Of a stretch of DNA of 64,000 nt, positions 2,395 to 62,795 are shown in pieces. A program made the translations under genes and the position numbers. The stretch spans positions 1,214,459 through 1,278,458 of the forward strand of contig CM000435.1 in the NCBI GenBank assembly GCA_000165345.1, read 5' to 3'. The notes beneath the pieces are model-generated. The model saw only the letters and a list, made by a program, of their open reading frames with translations. It was not told the origin of the DNA and searched no databases. Within the stretch, counting starts at the first letter, position 1. Every line of letters starts with the position of its first letter.

Positions 2395-3525
2395 TTACTT
2401 GACAAAAAGAGAAATTGCTCTAATAATTTCTAAAGAGAGTGCAATACTTTGATCAAATGTATATTTTGATGAAATATTGCTAATATATCTGAGAATCTTG
2501 ACCACTCCATTTCTGGTATAATCAAAAATTTGTTTGAAGTGGATTTCTATATTAACAATAGGTCTTGCGAGTAGATCTATAAGATTATGACTAGGATTCA
2601 ATAATTCCATTGGCCAAGGGAAAGGCTTGCTATAGCTTGAAACTAAAACCCCATTTACAATTAAGTAGCCATCTGTTGTTAATGGAGCATACCTTCCCAC
2701 ATACTCGTAATTTTTTTGATTGCTGTTTACATTAGAAATTATCGAGACTTGTGTTACCCACCCAACTCGCTCTTTTGAATAGATAATTACTGAGTCACCA
2801 ACCCTAATATCCTTTGCTTGGATTGAAGTAAGTTTCTTTTTTTTCTCAAGTTGAGGAGTGACTTCAATTCCAATAGCTTTTTCAATTTGACTAGGATAAT
2901 AACAATTTCCTTCGTGTGGTTTTTCTCCAAGGTATTGTATGAATATTAGATGATTCGGAGAAAGAACCAGAGGTTTCTCCATCCCTAAATATTCTACTTG
3001 AATCCATTCATCATCCAAGTATATATTTTTATCTTTATGTAACATTATTTCAACTTTGCTGTACTTAAATTTCATTGTGTTAAGATCTCTAATTAAAACA
3101 TACTCTCCAATTCTTAAATCTTCCAACTTTATTTCTCCCCTTTCTCTAGTGATTACTAAGCTATTTCCTGGGAAACACAAATTATTTGATTGACTCTGAG
3201 CCCCACAATTTGGATTATAAGGATAATCATCCTCATCAAGTTCATTAGACAAGTAACCAATATTTATCAGTTGGCCTACACAGGAAGAGGGAAATGCTAA
3301 TGAAATGGCATTTGAAATAACATTCCCCCACCCAGACCTAAATCCGGTTCCTCCTGCTGACATTCCTGAAAATGTATCAAATATCGATTTGGTTCTAACT
3401 CGAATAAAACTTAGATTTGAATGAAATAAATCCACATTTTTGCGAGATTCTTTATTAAACCAGAATAATTCAACAAGTATAGTTAACCAGAGAAAGCAAA
3501 TAATTTTTATATTATTAACTTTCAT
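2395..3525 (-). CDS. Secreted Hint (Hedgehog/intein-type autoprocessing) domain protein
   Basis: 376-aa ORF with a hydrophobic N-terminal signal (MKVNNIKIICFLWLTILVELFWF). Hint block A is CFPGNSLVITRERGEIKLEDLRIGEYVLIRD (Cys nucleophile), block B is SPNHLIFI (the T/SxxH motif), and the C-terminal block is TTDGYLIVNGVLVSSY (Hedgehog has TxxGTIVVNxVLASCY). Confidence 0.7.
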   Translation of the reverse strand: MKVNNIKIICFLWLTILVELFWFNKESRKNVDLFHSNLSFIRVRTKSIFDTFSGMSAGGTGFRSGWGNVISNAISLAFPSSCVGQLINIGYLSNELDEDDYPYNPNCGAQSQSNNLCFPGNSLVITRERGEIKLEDLRIGEYVLIRDLNTMKFKYSKVEIMLHKDKNIYLDDEWIQVEYLGMEKPLVLSPNHLIFIQYLGEKPHEGNCYYPSQIEKAIGIEVTPQLEKKKKLTSIQAKDIRVGDSVIIYSKERVGWVTQVSIISNVNSNQKNYEYVGRYAPLTTDGYLIVNGVLVSSYSKPFPWPMELLNPSHNLIDLLARPIVNIEIHFKQIFDYTRNGVVKILRYISNISSKYTFDQSIALSLEIIRAISLFVK

Positions 3526-11635: not shown

Positions 11636-12083
11636 TTTTTTTTAAAAGCTCTTTTATATTAATATTATTTAAAATATTTTCATTTAACTAGAGATCTTAA
11701 TTCGCTTAGTTCATATAGCATGGTACTTTACGTTACGTATCTACGTGTTATACCAATATTGTTCATAACTAACAGTTACCTGCAAAATAATCTTAATTAA
11801 AAGAAATTTAAATTGAAAATATTTAAGAAAAACAAATATTATATCTAAAATCACTTTTAAAAAGATAATAGTAAGTCGATATTCACTTTTATCGCAACCT
11901 AATACAAACATTAAACTCCACTTCAAAATGATAAGTTCTAAAAATGTAGGCTATATATATTAATGCTTTAAATTTCAAAAATCCTATGTAATATAGTTGA
12001 AAATCTGAATAGATTTGGATAAGATCTTTTATCAAAACTTGAATCAATTTTTCAAATGCTTATTTTTGAACTGACTACAATAG

Positions 12084-12126
12084 TGCATGCAAGGCAGCGC
12101 CAAATCACACGAACGCTGTTGGCGCC
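12084..12126. promoter_or_regulatory. TGCATGCA box plus paired E2F-like boxes (GCGCCAAAT ... TTGGCGCC)
   Basis: TGCATGCA at 12084-12091, GCGCCAAAT at 12097-12105 and TTGGCGCC at 12119-12126. Intergenic between the 11635 minus-strand gene and the small plus-strand ORF at 12319. Confidence 0.55.
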
Positions 12127-12318
12127 TATTTGAAACAAATTTGTGTGGTTTTTGATATAAATGTAAGATGAAAAAGAAAATGTATTTTTTTTCATTTTTT
12201 TTCGCAAGTTAAGGTAGGATTATCTTTTGTAATATTTTTAAATTACTTAGGTTGATAGAATGTTTCTCTTTTTTGTAACTTGACTAACTATTAGAGCATA
12301 AACTCTTTTAAAGTAGAA

Positions 12319-12543
12319 ATGTACAGAAATGAAATATTAAGTAATTTCTCCTCTAGATTGAGAATTATGTATCGCTACTACGAGAATAGATGGAATGAGC
12401 TTATATACAAACAAAATGATGATTTGGTAATGATTCTAAAAGAATATAACTTGAAAATAAAACGTGTAGCAAACAACCAAGGAAAAGGGATAGTTAAAAA
12501 AATAATGTTTTGTGAGCCTGATATAAAAAGGAATATAATTTAA
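12319..12543 (+). CDS. Possible small protein (74 aa), unassigned
   Basis: Clean ATG ORF about 190 nt downstream of a paired E2F box (12097-12126) in an otherwise empty 650-nt intergenic gap. No homology recognised. Confidence 0.25.
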   Translation: MYRNEILSNFSSRLRIMYRYYENRWNELIYKQNDDLVMILKEYNLKIKRVANNQGKGIVKKIMFCEPDIKRNII

Positions 12544-12689
12544 ATAAACTTGATTCTACAGAAAGAGCGTTTTCTATCATCAAGTACAATTTTCTAAAGT
12601 TGGGAAAAGCAATACATAATTTAAAATAACTTGGGTGTTGGAAATAAATAGTATTCAAGAATTGAATAAAAATAATCCAAAACCTTTAT

Positions 12690-12986
12690 TTAAGAATCTG
12701 AAATCTTTTGCCTCTTATATACTTGTTGGTCTTTCTCAAAGTTTTGAGTCAAATCTTCATATCCCTCTCCTACCATTCCAATACAATCGCCACGTAAAAC
12801 AAGAGACTCCATACTTACAGTTTCTACTTTGTTCAGATCTTTATTATATATCTTTTCAAAGCAATTTTGTAATACTATATTTGTTAGCTGATCGAACCCT
12901 ACCAAATTCCCAACATATACTTTGTTATCAACTGTCAATACGCTCACAGTCTTGTTGATAAACTGTTCTAATGTAGAACTATTCAT
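12690..12986 (-). CDS. LSM8: Sm-like protein LSm8 (U6 snRNA-associated)
   Basis: 98 aa. LEQFINKTVSVLTVDNKVYVGNLVGFDQLTNIVL...VETVSMESLVLRGDCIGMVGE matches human LSm8 LENYINRTVAVITSDGRMIVGTLKGFDQTINLIL...VEQVVLGLYIVRGDNVAVIGE. Confidence 0.8.
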   Translation of the reverse strand: MNSSTLEQFINKTVSVLTVDNKVYVGNLVGFDQLTNIVLQNCFEKIYNKDLNKVETVSMESLVLRGDCIGMVGEGYEDLTQNFEKDQQVYKRQKISDS

Positions 12987-13314
12987 CTGCTAATTCTAAA
13001 AGTTGGTAAAAAGTATGCAAATAATTAATAAGGACCAATATAAATATATATATTTATATAGATCAGTTTGCCAATGTATTTTGGAATCCTAATTTTTTTT
13101 AAACCTTGAAAGTAACTGGAATAATTGAAACAGTCAGTTCAAAAATAGAAAATCCTAAGGCATTGTCTAGCCACGTATTTAAGATGAATTCTTATTTAAT
13201 ATATTGTTAACAAATAAATTTCCTTGAAAAATAATTTTAAAATAATTTTTCTGGTCTCATTCTACCGACATCAATGGACCCTCATCTTGATACCGGTTTT
13301 TGACTATGAGTGCA

Positions 13315-13325
13315 TTTTGGCGGGC
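13315..13325. promoter_or_regulatory. E2F-like box TTTTGGCGGGC
   Basis: Intergenic between divergent LSm8 (minus, ATG 12986) and the 13613 plus-strand gene. Confidence 0.5.
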
Positions 13326-13612
13326 TTCGGGAATAATTTATTTATTAAGCTGATGAAAAAATTAGTATACAAATAATTTAGATTACTGTGAGTTTGAAAG
13401 AAAATTTTCGGTATTATTTGTTCTCACTGGAAAGAAGATACAATCTCTTGAAGGTATAAAGTAAAAGTCCCTTATATTCGTATTAATAATAAGTGGCTCA
13501 TAAAGCCATTAATAATAAATTTAAAAATACGAAATTTATGTGAGAATATAAGTAATAAACCTTTAAAGTGAGGGAGAAAGAGGTAGGAGTTTATCATATT
13601 GAGTACAAAACC

Positions 13613-18056: not shown

Positions 18057-19190
18057 TTATCCGGCATTAGTAAACGGTAAATCTTTTCCATTAGGTATTA
18101 AGTTAGAACCAGAATCGGGATCAGCTTGCAGTACAAAAACGGCCCAATCTCTTAAGATGTGGTTTATTTCTTTCAAGAAGGGTGACTTACATTGTAAAGG
18201 AGTACAATTTGTAGAATGCACCGCTACAACGAGAGAGCATGCTGGCTCTTTAAAAAATTGTGCCTTTTTCTCCACGTACTGGAGAAGTGGAGCAGTTGTA
18301 GCTTGATTATTACCTATAAGTTGCCCAAGATTTCCAGAAATAATTATTTCTTCTTCTGTTTCTTTACCAAATACATTACCATAGTTTCCCATATATACCC
18401 CCGATAAAGGACCAAATTCCAATTCTTTTTCTAAACCAGGCTCAAACATTTGGGTCGCTAATGTTCCTCCGAATGCCATTTCTTGGAGTCTTCTAAGCAT
18501 TATATTGTTGTTATTACCGATATCATCCCATTTCCTTTTACCCACTCCAATCTCAGATTCATCATCTTTTAATCCTTTGGAATCTCCACAAATTCCTTTA
18601 TCTTTGATACAATTCTTTGAACTGTTTTCAAATTCGTTAGTTAAAAACTCAACATTATTTTCCATATCAATTCCCATACCTCTCATTTGAACAGCTTGGA
18701 TGTCTGCTTGACTTTTCTTCACATAACGAGAAGAGGAAGTGAACAAATTGTTTGAAATAGTGTCTTGACCTCTTGAACTAGTGTCATTAAAGTTGATTGG
18801 AAACTCTTGATCATTCTTATTTTCAGAAATTTCGTTTAAAGTTTCAAAGATATCTTCAACTACTTCATCTGACACCACATCATTCTCATCAAATGTTCCA
18901 GAAATAATTTTGTATGTCTCATCTTCAGGAATTTCTTCTCCAAACTCATATTTTTCGAGTGCTTTAGGAGGAAAAATAACGTTGAAGCCCTTTGGACACC
19001 AAATTCTGCCTCTTGTATAATTAACAATATTACAAATCATAGTTACTCTTTGATAAAAAGCAAAGTTTGAGCCAATATATGAAGGTTGGGAATTATCTGG
19101 ACAAATTGCTATTGGTGGAATAACCTGAAATGCTTTGCATCCTTCAATTGAATTAACAAATCCTGCTGGACAAATTCCTCCATCCAATTC
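18057..19190 (-). CDS. COWP-like Cys-motif protein, exon 3 of 3
   Basis: Continues ELDGGICPAGFVNSIEGCKAF...ICPDNSQPSY...WCPKGFNVIFPP, then an acidic low-complexity region and a Cys-containing C-terminus. The ORF-track Met is really an internal TTG codon. Confidence 0.55.
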   Translation of the reverse strand, partial: ELDGGICPAGFVNSIEGCKAFQVIPPIAICPDNSQPSYIGSNFAFYQRVTMICNIVNYTRGRIWCPKGFNVIFPPKALEKYEFGEEIPEDETYKIISGTFDENDVVSDEVVEDIFETLNEISENKNDQEFPINFNDTSSRGQDTISNNLFTSSSRYVKKSQADIQAVQMRGMGIDMENNVEFLTNEFENSSKNCIKDKGICGDSKGLKDDESEIGVGKRKWDDIGNNNNIMLRRLQEMAFGGTLATQMFEPGLEKELEFGPLSGVYMGNYGNVFGKETEEEIIISGNLGQLIGNNQATTAPLLQYVEKKAQFFKEPACSLVVAVHSTNCTPLQCKSPFLKEINHILRDWAVFVLQADPDSGSNLIPNGKDLPFTNAG

Positions 19191-19247
19191 CTATAAAAAA
19201 AAAATTCAAATGAATTATCATCAATAATTTTATCTCCTTAAACTTAC

Positions 19248-19408
19248 AGAAAATGGAATAACACGATACCCTTCGCATGCCCATGATATAATATCTGGAG
19301 TAACTTCTCCTGTATTTGAATTAGTTTCTGATTCGTACTTAAGTCTAAGTTTCATTCCTGCTGGACATGCTAAAGAAGGTCCTACTTCTCTTTTTTCCTG
19401 GCAAATTC
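19248..19408 (-). CDS. COWP-like Cys-motif protein, exon 2 of 3
   Basis: Intron 1 is 19409-19493 (85 nt, GTAATT...AAAATAG) and intron 2 is 19191-19247 (57 nt, GTAAGT...TTTTATAG). Phases are consistent (1 then 0). The exon encodes ICQEKREVGPSLACPAGMKLRL...WACEGYRVIPFS. Confidence 0.5.
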
Positions 19409-19493
19409 CTATTTTTAATAAATAAAAAATATATTATATTTAATATAAGTAAATTTATTACTGTAAGCCAAAAAGAATATTTTGCAAAATTAC

Positions 19494-19953
19494 CTGGATA
19501 TAAAGATGACTGTTTAGGAATAGTGCCTGACGCTGAGCTAACAAATCTTCCCAGATCACCAAAACACTCTGTTCTTGGTCCCAAAGAAACCTCAGCCATA
19601 CAAAGTGGCCCCCAAGGAGTCCAGCCTTTTGGGCATCTGACCTGAACAGGTCTAATTAATTCAGGTACCCTATTATCTACTCCTTTTTCTTGCTTTCTAG
19701 TTAAAATGGGTTCAAATTCAGGTTTTTTTTCCGTCAATTTATGAAGCTCAAGAATCTCCGTAATATTTGCATCATATCTGGGAAACTTGTCTTTCCAAGG
19801 AAGGGGCTTGTAATCTGACTTTAATTTTTGAGGTCCATACATTTCAGCTGGGTTTGTAGATCCTGAAAAGTCATGCCTTTCTTGTGCCACATTTCTTTGC
19901 GATAATACATATCTAAAACATAAAACAAGCAGTAATAATATCAAAAAATTCAT
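19494..19953 (-). CDS. Secreted Cys-motif protein with CPxG(F/W/M) repeats (COWP-like), exon 1 of 3
   Basis: Signal peptide MNFLILLLLVLCFRYVLSQ. The exon ends CCAG|GTAATT in phase 1. It contains RCPKGWTPWGPLC. Confidence 0.55.
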
Positions 19954-20061
19954 TTTATAACTAGAAAATGAGTATCATCTGCTCAGTTCAATTCATATTT
20001 CTTGAACTTTCATTAAAAAGAAAAACCTTATTGCATGCTTTTTTATAATATTACCAAATTA

Positions 20062-20070
20062 CCCGCCAAA
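20062..20070. promoter_or_regulatory. E2F-like box CCCGCCAAA (reverse complement TTTGGCGGG)
   Basis: Intergenic between the COWP-like gene (minus, ATG 19953) and the WDR44-like gene (plus, ATG 20303). Confidence 0.5.
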
Positions 20071-20206
20071 GCGATTTTTTGATGATACCCCAAAAAGATC
20101 GATAAAGAAAAAAAAATAGGACAAATTATTACGTGAAAAGTGGGAAAAACTTTGATACACATATTTTTGTGTATGAGCCCTAATAGTGAATCAGATATTA
20201 GGTAGC

Positions 20207-20224
20207 AGAGAGAGAGAGAGAGAA
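20207..20224. repeat. (GA)9 microsatellite / GAGA-like box about 80 nt upstream of the WDR44-like gene
   Basis: agagagagagagagagag at 20207-20224 in the intergenic region. Confidence 0.6.
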
Positions 20225-20302
20225 GCAAAATATCTTGGAGTTGGAACAATGTTTTGAAGTTAATGGGATCAGAAAGAAGAACAAAGGTATTTCCGGTTAA
20301 AT

Positions 20303-58115: not shown

Positions 58116-60973
58116 TTACATTTTGTTTCTAATTTCTTTCGAAGTATCTTCAATAATGTCATTTTTAGTGATTACTTGCTCACCATCAACCATTTTATCC
58201 TTTTCCCCATAACTTTCCACATCTGCCAGCTTGCTGGAAAGATTGGGTTGATTTGGAAGATTTAGTGTATTAAAACTCGAATTACCTTCCTGATTATTAT
58301 GATTTTCATTTTCTTGGTTAGGATATGTAGCTGGCTTTGAGTTTTGTTCTGTAGAAGTGATTGGTAAGCGTTCTGAGTCCAATCCTTCTTCTGGAGAAGT
58401 AGCAGGAGTGTGATCTGAGCTGGATCCTGTTTCTGGTATAGTAGCAGAAGGATGATTTGAACTTGATCCAGTCTCTGGAATTGTCACAGGCGCGTGATCT
58501 GAGCCTGACCCGGTCTCTGGAATCGTCACAGGTGCGTGATCTGAGTCTGATCCAGTCTCTGGAATAGTAACAGAAGGATGATTTGAACTTGATTCAGTCT
58601 CTGGAACTGTCACAGAAGGATGATTTGAACTTGATCCAGTCTCTGGAACTGTCACAGAAGGATGATTTGAACTTGATCCAGTCTCTGGAATAGTAACAGA
58701 AGGATGATTTGAACTTGATTCAGTCTCTGGAACTGTCACAGAAGGATGATTTGAACTTGATCCAGTCTCTGGAATAGTAACAGGCGCGTGATCTGAGCCT
58801 GACCCGGTCTCTGGAATCGTCACAGGTGCGTGATCTGAGCCTGATCCAGTCTCTGGAACTGTCACAGAAGGATGATTTGAACTTGATCCAGTCTCTGGAA
58901 TAGTGGCAGGATGATCTGAACCCGAATCAGTCTCTGGTTTAGTAACAGAAGGATGGTTTGAACTTGATCCAGTCTCTGGAATAGTAACAGAAGGATGATT
59001 TGAACTTGATCCAGTCTCTGGAATTGTCACAGGTGCGTGATCTGAGTCTGATCCAGTCTCTGGAACTGTCACAGAAGGATGATTTGAACTTGATCCAGTA
59101 TCTGGAATTGTCACAGAAGGATGATTTGAACTTGATCCAGTCTCTGGAATAGTAACAGAAGGATGATTTGAACTTGATTCAGTCTCTGGAATTGTCACAG
59201 AAGGATGATTTGAACTTGATCCAGTATCTGGAATTGTCACAGAAGGATGATTTGAACTTGATCCAGTCTCTGGAACTGTCACAGAAGGATGGTTTGAACT
59301 TGATCCAGTATCTGGAACTGTCACAGAAGGATGATTTGAACTTGATTCGTTTTCTGGTGAGGTAATAGGGGCTTGCTCTGAACCAGATTCTTGATGTTCA
59401 CCATTTGAGGGCTTTTCTGTAGGATGCGGTCTAACAACTGGATGAGGCTTTGTGTTTTGGTTCTGAGTTAAGTTATTCCCACCTGATTCTGGATTTGTTG
59501 AGTTTAGTGGCTTCATTATTTCATTTTGAATATTTTGATTTTCTTGATTATTCAAGTGGCCATTTTCTTTTATAGGCGCATGTTTAATTAAAGAAGAAGA
59601 AAATCCATCGATAATACTCCAATATCCAATTGTGGAGATTGAGTTTTCTCCGGCTTCAAGAGAAATTTTGTTGATTTTATTTGTGTTAATTGGAATATAT
59701 CCAAGAATGCAGTTATTCCATGTAAGGAAAAGATAATATTCAGAATTAGAAGATTGGAGAGTTGTCGCTAAGTCTTTCTCAGAACCAAAAGTCATTTTAT
59801 TCTCAGCGCGATTAAAGGGTTTAAGACAATGTGCTTCATTCTTTTCAAAACATGTTTTTGTATAGAAAACACAAGCGATTGAATAACTTACAGCTTCAAG
59901 AGCGTGTTTCCTATCAAGGATAAAAATATCACCTCCGAGCCAACTACCATTTATCAAGCCAAGCTCAAATTTAATTTCGAATTTAGTAGAAATGTTTTTC
60001 AAAATTCCGGATCCATCTGGATTTAAAACAAATAATGACTTTGCATCGTTTGAATCAAAGAAACTAATTGAAATAGGTAAAAGATCAGTTCTTGGAACAT
60101 TAAATCCAAATCTTAAATAATTTCCCTTAGTTAGACCGCCATAATACGGAATTAAAACAACATTCGATTTGCACACATTCATTGCTTCAGAAATACTGCA
60201 AACATTATTTGATTTAGAAAGTGCTAGCATTTCATTGTTAATTTTCATCGCATCATTGACTGATATTTTGTCGCCATTATTTGTACCATTCTTATAATTC
60301 CCAGCAAAAAGAATAATTTTCGAGTGGGTATTATCAAATAAATAACTGGAACTTTCATCCCAGTATAATGAAAGGTTTATTTTTGTTGAATTTGACCATT
60401 CTTCGGGTATTTGAGAAATGCTAGATATTGTAGAATCGTTGTCAAATAAACTTACTTCATTGTCATTCAACCAAAGAAGCATTTGTTTTTTCAAGTTTGT
60501 TGTGCCAAATAAGTTAGAAACGAGCATTGGAATATTCCTAAAATCGTTCCTCTTAATAGTAAAATTGATTAACCCTTTAGAACCATTAGTTATTCCAGAA
60601 TTTTCATTATGAAAATTTAAATTTGGGCAATTTTTACTGTTTATATTAAATACAGTACCATTGTGAGATAAAACTGAAAAGATTTTATCACCATGCCCAT
60701 CTGGGGAATTAAGGCCCAAATTAATATTCGATTGGCCTGAATGTTTATCTTTGGATTCGGAGAAATCTTCATCTAAAACTTGTTCCATGGAATTATTTTT
60801 TAAATCTATTTCTTTCTCATTTGATGAAAAATATTCACTAGTAGTTTTCGTACTAGTAGTAGTTTTCGTACTAGCAGTAGTTCTTGTAGTAGTAGTAGTT
60901 CTTGTAGTAGTAGTAGTTCTTGTAGTAGTAGTAGTTCTTGTAGTAGTAGTAGTAGTAGTAGGGATTTTCATAA
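58116..60973 (-). CDS. Mucin-like glycoprotein, exon 5 of 5 (Thr-rich stalk, ~450-aa domain, then ~24 tandem 15-aa S/T/P repeats)
   Basis: 951 codons. The exon opens with (TTTTTR)n, then a Cys-containing Asn-rich domain, then repeats of SSSNHPSVT(I/V)PETG(S). It ends with an Asn/Gln-rich tail. The acceptor ATATTTAG lies 2 nt upstream of the MKIP... codon at 60971, so the exon is entered in phase 1. Confidence 0.8.
58380..59370 (-). repeat. In-frame 45-nt tandem coding repeats (~22-24 copies) of the mucin gene
   Basis: Repeated ccagtctctggaa(t/c)(a/t)gtcacagaaggatgatttgaacttgat units with point variants. They encode the SSSNHPSVTIPETGS units. Confidence 0.85.
60845..60963 (-). repeat. 18-nt ACT/AGA-codon repeats encoding (TTTTTR)n
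   Basis: gtagtagtagtagttctt tandem units on the plus strand at the 5' end of mucin exon 5. Confidence 0.8.
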
Positions 60974-62489: not shown

Positions 62490-62795
62490 TTGAATTTTTT
62501 TTGGATTGTTTTTTTTTGCACTTGAATTTTTTTTGCACTTGGATTTTTTTTGGATTGAGTTTTTTTGCACTTGAATTTTTTATACTTGATTTTTTTTGGA
62601 TTGAGTTTTTTTGGATTGTTTTTTTTTGCACTTGAATTTTTTTTGTACTTGGATTTTTTTTGGATTGAGTTTTTTTGCACTTGAATTTTTTATACTTGAT
62701 TTTTTTTGGATTGAGTTTTTTTGGATTGAGTTTTTTTGCACTTGAATTTTTTTTGCACTTGGATTTTTTATACTTGATTTTTTTTTTTTCATAAA
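62490..62795. repeat. T-rich ~110-120-nt tandem sub-repeats (~2.7 copies) in the spacer upstream of the 18S rRNA gene
   Basis: The motifs ttggattgagtttttttgcacttgaattttttatacttgattttttt and ttggattgtttttttttgcacttgaattttttttgcacttgg recur at 62505, 62612 and 62712. The Lys-rich minus-strand ORFs here are translation artefacts of the repeat. Confidence 0.7.

Follow-up and report, generated by a model that had tools for sequence, protein, structure and literature searches.

The locus described here raises the question of whether two open reading frames (ORFs) on chromosome 7 of Cryptosporidium parvum Iowa II belong to two genes or to one and, if to one, what kind of protein is encoded. Both ORFs are situated on the minus strand of a stretch of 64,000 nt (GenBank assembly GCA_000165345.1, contig CM000435.1, positions 1,214,459 to 1,278,458), which is called the window in the following and provides all positions given below. 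They extend over 18057-19187 (376 aa, TTG start) and 19345-19953 (202 aa, ATG start). An earlier note on the window, made from the sequence alone, had joined them by two short introns and had seen in the product a similarity to the type-I repeats of oocyst wall proteins (OWPs, named COWPs in Cryptosporidium). Our analysis supports a single three-exon gene, hereafter the OWP-like gene, for a predicted secreted protein whose N-terminal Cys domain is probably built from two degenerate OWP type-I-like repeats.

The minus-strand exons 19953-19494, 19408-19248 and 19190-18057 splice in frame into an open frame of 1755 nt (460 + 161 + 1134 nt), corresponding to 584 codons plus stop. The gene is built as follows.

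19494..19953, minus strand: exon 1, 460 nt, with the ATG at 19953-19951 and an end in phase 1, coding for the signal peptide, the N-terminal stretch (aa 20-104) and the start of Cys module A
19409..19493, minus strand: intron 1, 85 nt, GTAATT...ATAG, 13% GC, interrupting the codon of Gly154
19248..19408, minus strand: exon 2, 161 nt, coding for the end of module A (C156 and C168, the latter in 'CPAGM') and an insert with C198
19191..19247, minus strand: intron 2, 57 nt, GTAAGT...ATAG, 17.5% GC, in phase 0 between Ser207 and Glu208
18057..19190, minus strand: exon 3, 1134 nt including the TAA stop at 18057-18059, starting in phase 0 and coding for module B, the acidic linker and the C-terminal domain

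Thereby, the coordinates, lengths and phases that had been proposed for this structure were all reproduced, the intron ends are canonical as claimed, and the internal TTG, already suspected to be no true start, codes for Leu209 within the spliced product. The evidence for splicing is comparative and combines the sequence itself with the introns of orthologues and with homologous transcripts. Early stop codons appear if either of the introns is kept, and the GC content of both is low compared with 36% in the coding sequence and 32% in the sequence overall. The orthologous genes of C. andersoni (introns of 61 and 83 nt) and C. bovis (110 and 46 nt) are interrupted at these codon positions as well; the intron sequences are unrelated and their lengths are not multiples of 3. 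Furthermore, homologues derived from transcriptomes of gregarines and other apicomplexans follow the spliced product collinearly through 'PG[IV]C', the conserved motif at the junction of intron 1. By these comparisons the three-exon model with its 584-aa product holds. The gene is present as a single copy.

This model is not new, because it is present in the newer annotations cpbgf_7005400 and CPATCC_0011350, from which the spliced product differs by one residue (I499M). Products of 584 aa are annotated for C. parvum BGF/ATCC, C. hominis, C. meleagridis, C. ubiquitum and the chipmunk genotype I, while seven annotated full-length orthologues of other species comprise 577-605 aa. The naming after the oocyst wall is also partly known already, since the orthologues of C. 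ubiquitum and C. canis carry the UniRef label 'Oocyst wall protein', the sole informative name within the family. In the legacy annotation the locus is divided between cgd7_5390 (327 aa) and an adjacent, separate gene of 202 aa. Over its last 327 aa the exon-3 product does not differ from XP_628682 of C. parvum Iowa II, and it was assigned to cgd7_5390 because the liftover loci CPHLJ_7g5390 and CPCDC_7g5390 fall in the same cluster as XP_628682. The legacy cgd7_5390 model begins at Met258 within exon 3, i.e. in the middle of the conserved module B. The gene order is SAE2-like, the OWP-like locus, an 890-aa WD40 protein and RMI1, and the WD40 protein is the cgd7_5410 'WD40-repeat-containing protein' in the table of Tandel et al. 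2019 (PMC6877471); hence, the 202-aa legacy gene is probably cgd7_5400. Genes of 202 aa (19345-19953, minus strand) and 327 aa (18057-19040, minus strand) are still annotated separately in GCA_031892065.1 and GCA_048859185.1. Data sets keyed to cgd7_5390 or cgd7_5400 miss the signal peptide together with the Cys domain, and such split legacy models, which are common in expression and proteomics data sets, hide these two parts from screens for secreted wall proteins.

The spliced product is composed of the following parts.

19897-19953, minus strand: signal peptide (aa 1-19), the only hydrophobic segment
19341..19641 including intron 1, minus strand: Cys module A (aa 105-176), Cys107-11-Cys118-12-Cys130-26-Cys156-12-Cys168
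18966..19184, minus strand: Cys module B (aa 210-282), Cys214-11-Cys225-12-Cys237-23-Cys260-12-Cys272
18252..18941, minus strand: acidic linker (aa 291-520), net charge -22, predicted to be disordered
18060..18251, minus strand: C-terminal domain (aa 521-584), C525-11-C536-5-C541, a strand and a helix followed by 'DPDSGSNLIPNGKDLPFT'

The claim of a signal peptide agrees with the hydropathy profile, in which the sole Kyte-Doolittle window above 1.6 covers residues 1-19+ and no transmembrane segment is predicted (hydropathy only). The following stretch up to aa 104 contains no Cys and is well conserved within Cryptosporidium but divergent in other apicomplexans. Eleven Cys are found between aa 105 and 290 (at 107, 118, 130, 156, 168, 198, 214, 225, 237, 260 and 272), with spacings of 11, 12, 26, 12, 30, 16, 11, 12, 23 and 12 from aa 107 to 272. 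All five 'CP' units seen before are present (C107, C168, C214, C237, C272); however, they extend over residues 106-277 and not over the first 150 aa as had been stated. Modules A and B can be aligned with all five Cys in register (hhalign, 96%, E 3.9e-9), which identifies the Cys domain, at the level of sequence profiles, as a tandem duplication of a module of about 70 aa. The Cys account for 5.9% of the residues in this domain (11/186, aa 105-290) and for 2.9% of the entire protein (17/584). Likewise, the acidic low-complexity region and the Cys-containing C-terminus were confirmed. The linker is poorly conserved (19% identity to C. andersoni), and the C-terminal domain, which finishes in DPDSGSNLIPNGKDLPFTNAG, shows identities of 100% to chipmunk genotype I and 65% to C. 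andersoni and is recognisable in Toxoplasma and gregarines. Eleven Cys in the N-terminal and three in the C-terminal part are odd numbers; therefore, an inter-domain disulfide might exist, possibly via Cys272.

Structure prediction by AlphaFold2 with an alignment of 19 sequences resulted in a beta-rich folded region at 105-305 and a strand-plus-helix unit at 520-575. The predicted local distance difference test (pLDDT) score was mostly 80-90 in the folded regions and below 50 in the remainder; module A reached 74-89 with about 60 over aa 131-150, and module B about 86-91 with 63-72 over aa 241-260. The distant homologues had raised the confidence, as a Cryptosporidium-only alignment gave an unusable model with a pLDDT of 29.8. 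No Pfam domain rose above noise when the C. parvum protein and eight homologues were scanned, and the C-terminal domain had neither a Pfam nor a PDB match. Searching the PDB with the family profile returned marginal matches of about 15 bits only, namely 'CPxGW' in a type II antifreeze protein and herpesvirus gD.

How far does the Cys domain resemble OWP repeats? The reference set was taken from the supplement of Jonscher et al. 2015 (PMC4514997), namely EnOWP6, whose type-I repeats are regular, and three proteins with 'degenerated' ones (EnOWP2, EpOWP2 and EbOWP2), and recovered COWP7 fragments were added. In EnOWP6 the Cys alternate strictly with spacings of 11 and 12 over 40 Cys. OWPs are characterised by a regular distance of 10-12 residues between the Cys of tandem arrays, and the C. 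parvum protein shows this in part, with 11 or 12 in six of its ten spacings, in the EnOWP6 register, and 16-30 in the other four. Throughout the family a 'CP' Cys stands at the beginning of each spacing of 11 and at the end of nearly each spacing of 12. The domain can therefore be divided into six hairpin units connected by 12-residue linkers, with loop lengths of 11, 23-26 and variable in the first three, of 11 and 23-24 in the next two, and an open loop in the last. When the two halves of the family alignment were compared with a three-unit type-I profile by hhalign, half A reached 97.1% (E 4.9e-11) and half B 97.6% (E 4.1e-12), with one insertion located in the second hairpin. The accepted degenerate OWP2 proteins reached 94-97% in the same test, reversed-sequence controls with unchanged composition and Cys spacing 10.5% and 0.1%, and the C-terminal domain 1.2%. 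Even the C. parvum sequence alone gave 88% per half (E about 3e-6). A hidden Markov model (HMM) of the six-Cys type-I repeat, used against all PDB sequences, found fibrillin cbEGF as best match (16.4 bits, E 0.065). In the same search space OWP2s scored 42-49 bits and the OWP-like family 15-32 bits (Cardiosporidium 32.1, Toxoplasma 25.9, C. parvum 21.7 bits with E 0.0014), and all members but two outscored every PDB sequence. Collectively, these data suggest that the N-terminal domain comprises two degenerate OWP type-I-like six-Cys repeats, the last one without its closing Cys, which become visible at the profile level only. The suggested type-I similarity thus stands for the profile and Cys-framework tests (97% per half; 21.7 bits), and fails in ordinary searches, which find no COWP. 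To call the protein short and COWP-like is fair as a description of the N-terminal domain rather than of demonstrated family membership or function.

The protein belongs to a family that reaches beyond Cryptosporidium. An exhaustive HMMER search with the orthologue profile retrieved 24 representatives at E<=1e-3, among them Toxoplasma TGME49_208760 (with Hammondia and Neospora), Cardiosporidium cionae, Ancora sagittata, Selenidium serpulae, Gregarina niphandrodes and Gregarina sp. Poly1, as well as sequences from several marine-apicomplexan transcriptomes, metagenome contigs and Logan contigs. No sequence from Plasmodium, piroplasms or Eimeria reached this threshold. All family members share 14 Cys, of which the odd-numbered ones are 'CP', spaced by 11, 12, 23-26, 12, variable (19-241), about 16, 11, 12, 23-24 and 12, followed by C-11-C-5-C in the C-terminal domain. 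The linker length varies from near zero in the 317-aa Ancora protein to several hundred (more than 300) residues. The restriction of the homologues found to lineages making resistant oocysts or spores, with none found in Plasmodium and piroplasms, argues for a role in the wall. In the conservation table of Tandel et al. 2019 (PMC6877471) cgd7_5390 is placed in a list showing only C. parvum IDs (group OG5_222749). As a side observation, XP_053992436.1, deposited in RefSeq for the bee 'Hylaeus volcanicus' on a 2.76-Mb scaffold, is a family member with all 14 conserved Cys, which suggests that this assembly contains apicomplexan (gregarine-like) sequence.

Sexual-stage expression had been predicted in case the protein is COWP-like, and this is what the RNA-seq data of Tandel et al. 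2019 (PMC6877471, sheet 'AllDiffGenes') show. For cgd7_5390 the log2 counts per million (CPM) rise from 1.99 in sorted asexual stages to 5.22 in females in vitro and 7.04 in females in vivo (mice), equivalent to log2 fold changes of 3.23 (about 9-fold, female versus asexual) and 1.82 (in vivo versus in vitro). The expression rows of cgd7_5390 and cgd7_5400 correlate with r=0.87 across 12 RNA-seq samples. For comparison, the log2 CPM values of named COWPs are as follows.

COWP1: 5.2 asexual, 16.1 female in vitro, 15.7 female in vivo
COWP8: 1.35 asexual, 14.8 female in vitro, 14.05 female in vivo
COWP6: 5.4 asexual, 14.0 female in vitro, 13.8 female in vivo
COWP4: 2.6 asexual, 10.6 female in vitro, 11.4 female in vivo
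COWP5: 0.96 asexual, 9.6 female in vitro, 9.9 female in vivo
COWP9: 2.0 asexual, 7.8 female in vitro, about 9 female in vivo

With its additional increase in vivo, cgd7_5390 behaves like COWP4 and COWP9, which are expressed later, and this suggests a late, possibly post-fertilisation, role.

The reading favoured by these findings, with about even odds, makes the OWP-like protein a low-abundance accessory component that is deposited in the oocyst wall or in a structure formed together with it. The gene is transcribed in female gametes and shows more mRNA in vivo, where stages after fertilisation and during oocyst formation occur. In such a scenario the non-membrane protein would enter the secretory pathway of the macrogamont or zygote. 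Each module would form three 'CPxG-aromatic...C' hairpin units with 12-residue linkers between them, and disulfide cross-links might integrate the OWP-like domain into the Cys-rich wall matrix. The C-terminal domain could supply a specific interaction, with the acidic disordered linker as a spacer between the two domains. A more far-reaching reading, which we regard as doubtful, is that of a hitherto unrecognised ancient apicomplexan family, composed of two degenerate OWP type-I repeats and a unique, highly conserved 3-Cys C-terminal domain, that organises or anchors the oocyst or spore wall at low abundance and late, after fertilisation. It would be present in Cryptosporidium, coccidia, Nephromycida and gregarines and undetected in Haemosporida and piroplasms, and it would make the C. 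parvum protein a '10th OWP-like protein' with an unstudied Toxoplasma orthologue, TGME49_208760.

Several observations weigh against a wall protein of OWP type, and they are given here together with the explanations that they favour. First, gene and protein might be as described while the function lies outside of the wall, in a secreted adhesive or structural protein of late female or zygote development, for which the sporozoite secretory organelles, the crystalloid body and the matrix between sporozoites and wall are candidate sites, and in which the EGF-like Cys hairpins would provide a scaffold for binding. The modest expression fits this possibility, as the mRNA of cgd7_5390 is 4- to about 500-fold below those of COWP1, 4, 5, 6, 8 and 9 (4- to 6-fold below COWP9), and so does its increase in vivo, where post-fertilisation stages occur. 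Other female-upregulated classes are known, e.g. crystalloid-body proteins, and the family keeps a unique conserved C-terminal domain that is known in no OWP. Moreover, the gene is missing from the published oocyst-wall lists examined: cgd7_5390 is absent from the curated oocyst-wall gene list of Tandel et al. (PMC6877471) and from the accessible rows of the proteomics tables of PMC12548878, although the latter silence is uninformative. Tagging, localisation, proteomic or spatial-proteome evidence for cgd7_5390 was not found in the literature searched, which also contained no main-text mention of cgd7_5390, cgd7_5400, cpbgf_7005400 or TGME49_208760. On the other hand, cgd7_5390 does not appear in the accessible part of the 'sporozoite gene' supplement of Tandel et al. 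(PMC6877471), in which COWP5 and COWP6 are present, nor in the available portions of the AP2-F paper supplements examined, and the Cys framework matches OWP type-I repeats better than any PDB family. A function outside of the wall is conceivable without being probable.

Second, the type-I resemblance might be convergent or generic and reflect an independent Cys-rich fold that shares 'CPxG-aromatic' beta-hairpins and the 11/12 spacing. When 5.8e9 proteins were searched with the profile of the Cys domain, all matches at E<=10 were orthologue fragments, with no COWP among them. Pairwise BLASTP with a COWP7 fragment reached 23.9 bits (single-comparison E 0.008), and an hhalign comparison of the whole family with two COWP7 fragments 13.7%, so that ordinary searches provide no link to the COWPs. 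The direct profile comparison of the modules with OWP2 was also weak (10-27%). An HMM of the single 23-aa unit gave about 0 bits on the Cryptosporidium members and, tested with Cys-fixed shuffles, mixed results across the family, several members including C. parvum not scoring above their shuffles; three-unit profiles were used instead. The COWP side of these comparisons consisted of one Eimeria OWP6, three OWP2s and the COWP7 fragments, with COWP1-6, 8 and 9 outside of the set. No Pfam family is held in common, and the AlphaFold2 model with its compact beta-sheets and long hairpins found no PDB neighbour, neither EGF-like nor furin-like. Against convergence it can be stated that the 97% per half equals the accepted degenerate OWP2 proteins while the reversed controls fail, that all but two members score above every PDB sequence with the type-I HMM, that the family has kept both the periodicity of six Cys in three hairpins and the 'CP' register, and that the expression and phyletic patterns are as in OWPs. 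We consider convergence unlikely. Finally, two independent unspliced genes of 202 aa and 327/376 aa, as in the legacy annotation, are very unlikely despite the two genes that GCA_031892065.1, GCA_048859185.1 and prokaryote-style gene calling on Logan assemblies still show, given that the unspliced 202-aa ORF has a non-conserved tail translated from 13%-GC sequence, that the 327-aa product would begin inside conserved module B, that intron positions but neither intron sequences nor lengths are kept across species, that full-length homologous mRNAs of other apicomplexans are collinear with the spliced product, and that both legacy genes are co-regulated.

Next to the OWP-like gene, the window contains a few other features that deserve mention. 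According to the neighbouring genes the window belongs to the right end of chromosome 7 and runs in chromosome orientation. Upstream of the ATG the following region is found.

19954..20302, no strand assigned: divergent intergenic region, 349 bp, between the OWP-like gene and the 890-aa WD40 gene

This region presumably contains the promoter. It includes GCATGC at 20033-20038, with the ATG 80 nt downstream, and TTTGGCGGG at 20062-20070, read on the minus strand. We take these to be similar to motifs of ApiAP2 type and E2F type that are reported from the upstream regions of Cryptosporidium genes, and regard them as candidate motifs only. Farther away, an ORF of 951 aa (58116-60971, minus strand) begins with MKIPTTTTTTTRTTTTT and is Thr-rich and mucin-like. 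It contains a tandem repeat of 42 nt (14 aa) in 22.4 copies with 85% match, the repeats being placed at 58411-59346 and 60839-60961, and it is situated about 8 kb from the chromosome 7 end in CP029786.1. Beyond the last large ORF, near the chromosome end, a T-rich tandem array with periods of 15, 49 and 110 nt occupies 62494-62785 (97% match at period 110). A further ORF of 376 aa at 2395-3525 (minus strand) has an N-terminal hydrophobic segment and a precomputed Pfam Hint match (PF01079, hedgehog-type intein-like) in matching public contigs. The window is gene-dense except for about 2 kb at 11636-13612, where a six-frame scan found no ATG-started ORF of at least 150 aa and which may hold an intron-containing or short gene.

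The oocyst wall makes Cryptosporidium chlorine-resistant and transmissible, and the inventory of its proteins is still being defined, with COWP localisations published only in 2025-2026. If the assignment is true, a conserved, single-copy, female-upregulated OWP-like protein would be a tractable candidate for studying wall, suture and sporocyst biology, and its orthologues in Toxoplasma and gregarines might provide an evolutionary link for the diversification of type-I repeats. New here, and not mentioned in the literature searched, are the internal duplication, the quantitative type-I match, the 14-Cys framework, the unique C-terminal domain and the extension of the family to Toxoplasma TGME49_208760 and gregarines.

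It remains to compare the OWP-like protein with known systems. The CPW-WPC proteins of Plasmodium occur in sexual and zygote stages and carry a 'CPxxW' motif. They share with the C. parvum protein that they are secreted Cys-rich apicomplexan proteins, and 'RCPKGW' in the latter is reminiscent of their motif. However, the C. parvum protein lacks a WPC motif, and a homologue in Plasmodium was not found; membership was rejected, as the C. parvum protein and eight homologues gave no match to PF09717 at E<=10. With the EGF-like/cbEGF and GFR-CR proteins, the InterPro class of COWP1, COWP4 and COWP6, it has small disulfide-closed beta-hairpins in common, and a Notch1 EGF fragment was a marginal PDB match of the family profile (E 0.61); neither Pfam EGF-type models nor similarity to solved structures placed it among EGF, furin-like or GFR-CR proteins.

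Parallels exist to TgOWP2 and EnOWP2, in which the 'degenerated type-I' repeats likewise have an irregular Cys spacing derived from type-I, the gene contains short introns and expression is late, EnOWP2 being made during sporulation (PMC4514997). The OWP2s differ by their 47 Cys in 467 aa and have no counterpart of the C-terminal domain. The nine named loci of COWP1-9 (cgd6_2090, cgd7_1800, cgd4_670, cgd8_3350, cgd7_5150, cgd4_3090, cgd4_500, cgd6_200 and cgd6_210; PMC12548878; 2026 COWP4/6 preprint; Tandel code) do not include the OWP-like locus, neither as cgd7_5390 nor as the 202-aa gene. In comparison with the COWPs it has just two degenerate repeats (11 Cys), and its overall Cys content of 2.9% is below that of COWP4 (4.96%) and COWP6 (7.43%; bioRxiv 10.64898/2026.05.05.722909), i.e. 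it is not a protein of high Cys content. Type-II repeats and the His-rich region of COWP1 are missing, a feature that TgOWPs lack as well and that coccidian OWPs do not need. Nevertheless, many properties of COWPs, TgOWPs and EnOWPs are shared: the signal peptide without any transmembrane segment (PMC12548878), the 'CPxG[FYW]-x6-C-x11' hairpin units in the 11/12 Cys register and arranged in threes (six Cys per repeat; PMC4514997), the transcription in female or sexual stages, the presence in Cryptosporidium and coccidia, and a profile similarity of the family modules to type-I repeats that is as strong as for OWP2. To this framework the C. parvum protein adds second and third hairpins that are expanded to 23-30 residues in each repeat, an acidic linker of considerable length and, as a unique part, the conserved 3-Cys domain at its C-terminus.

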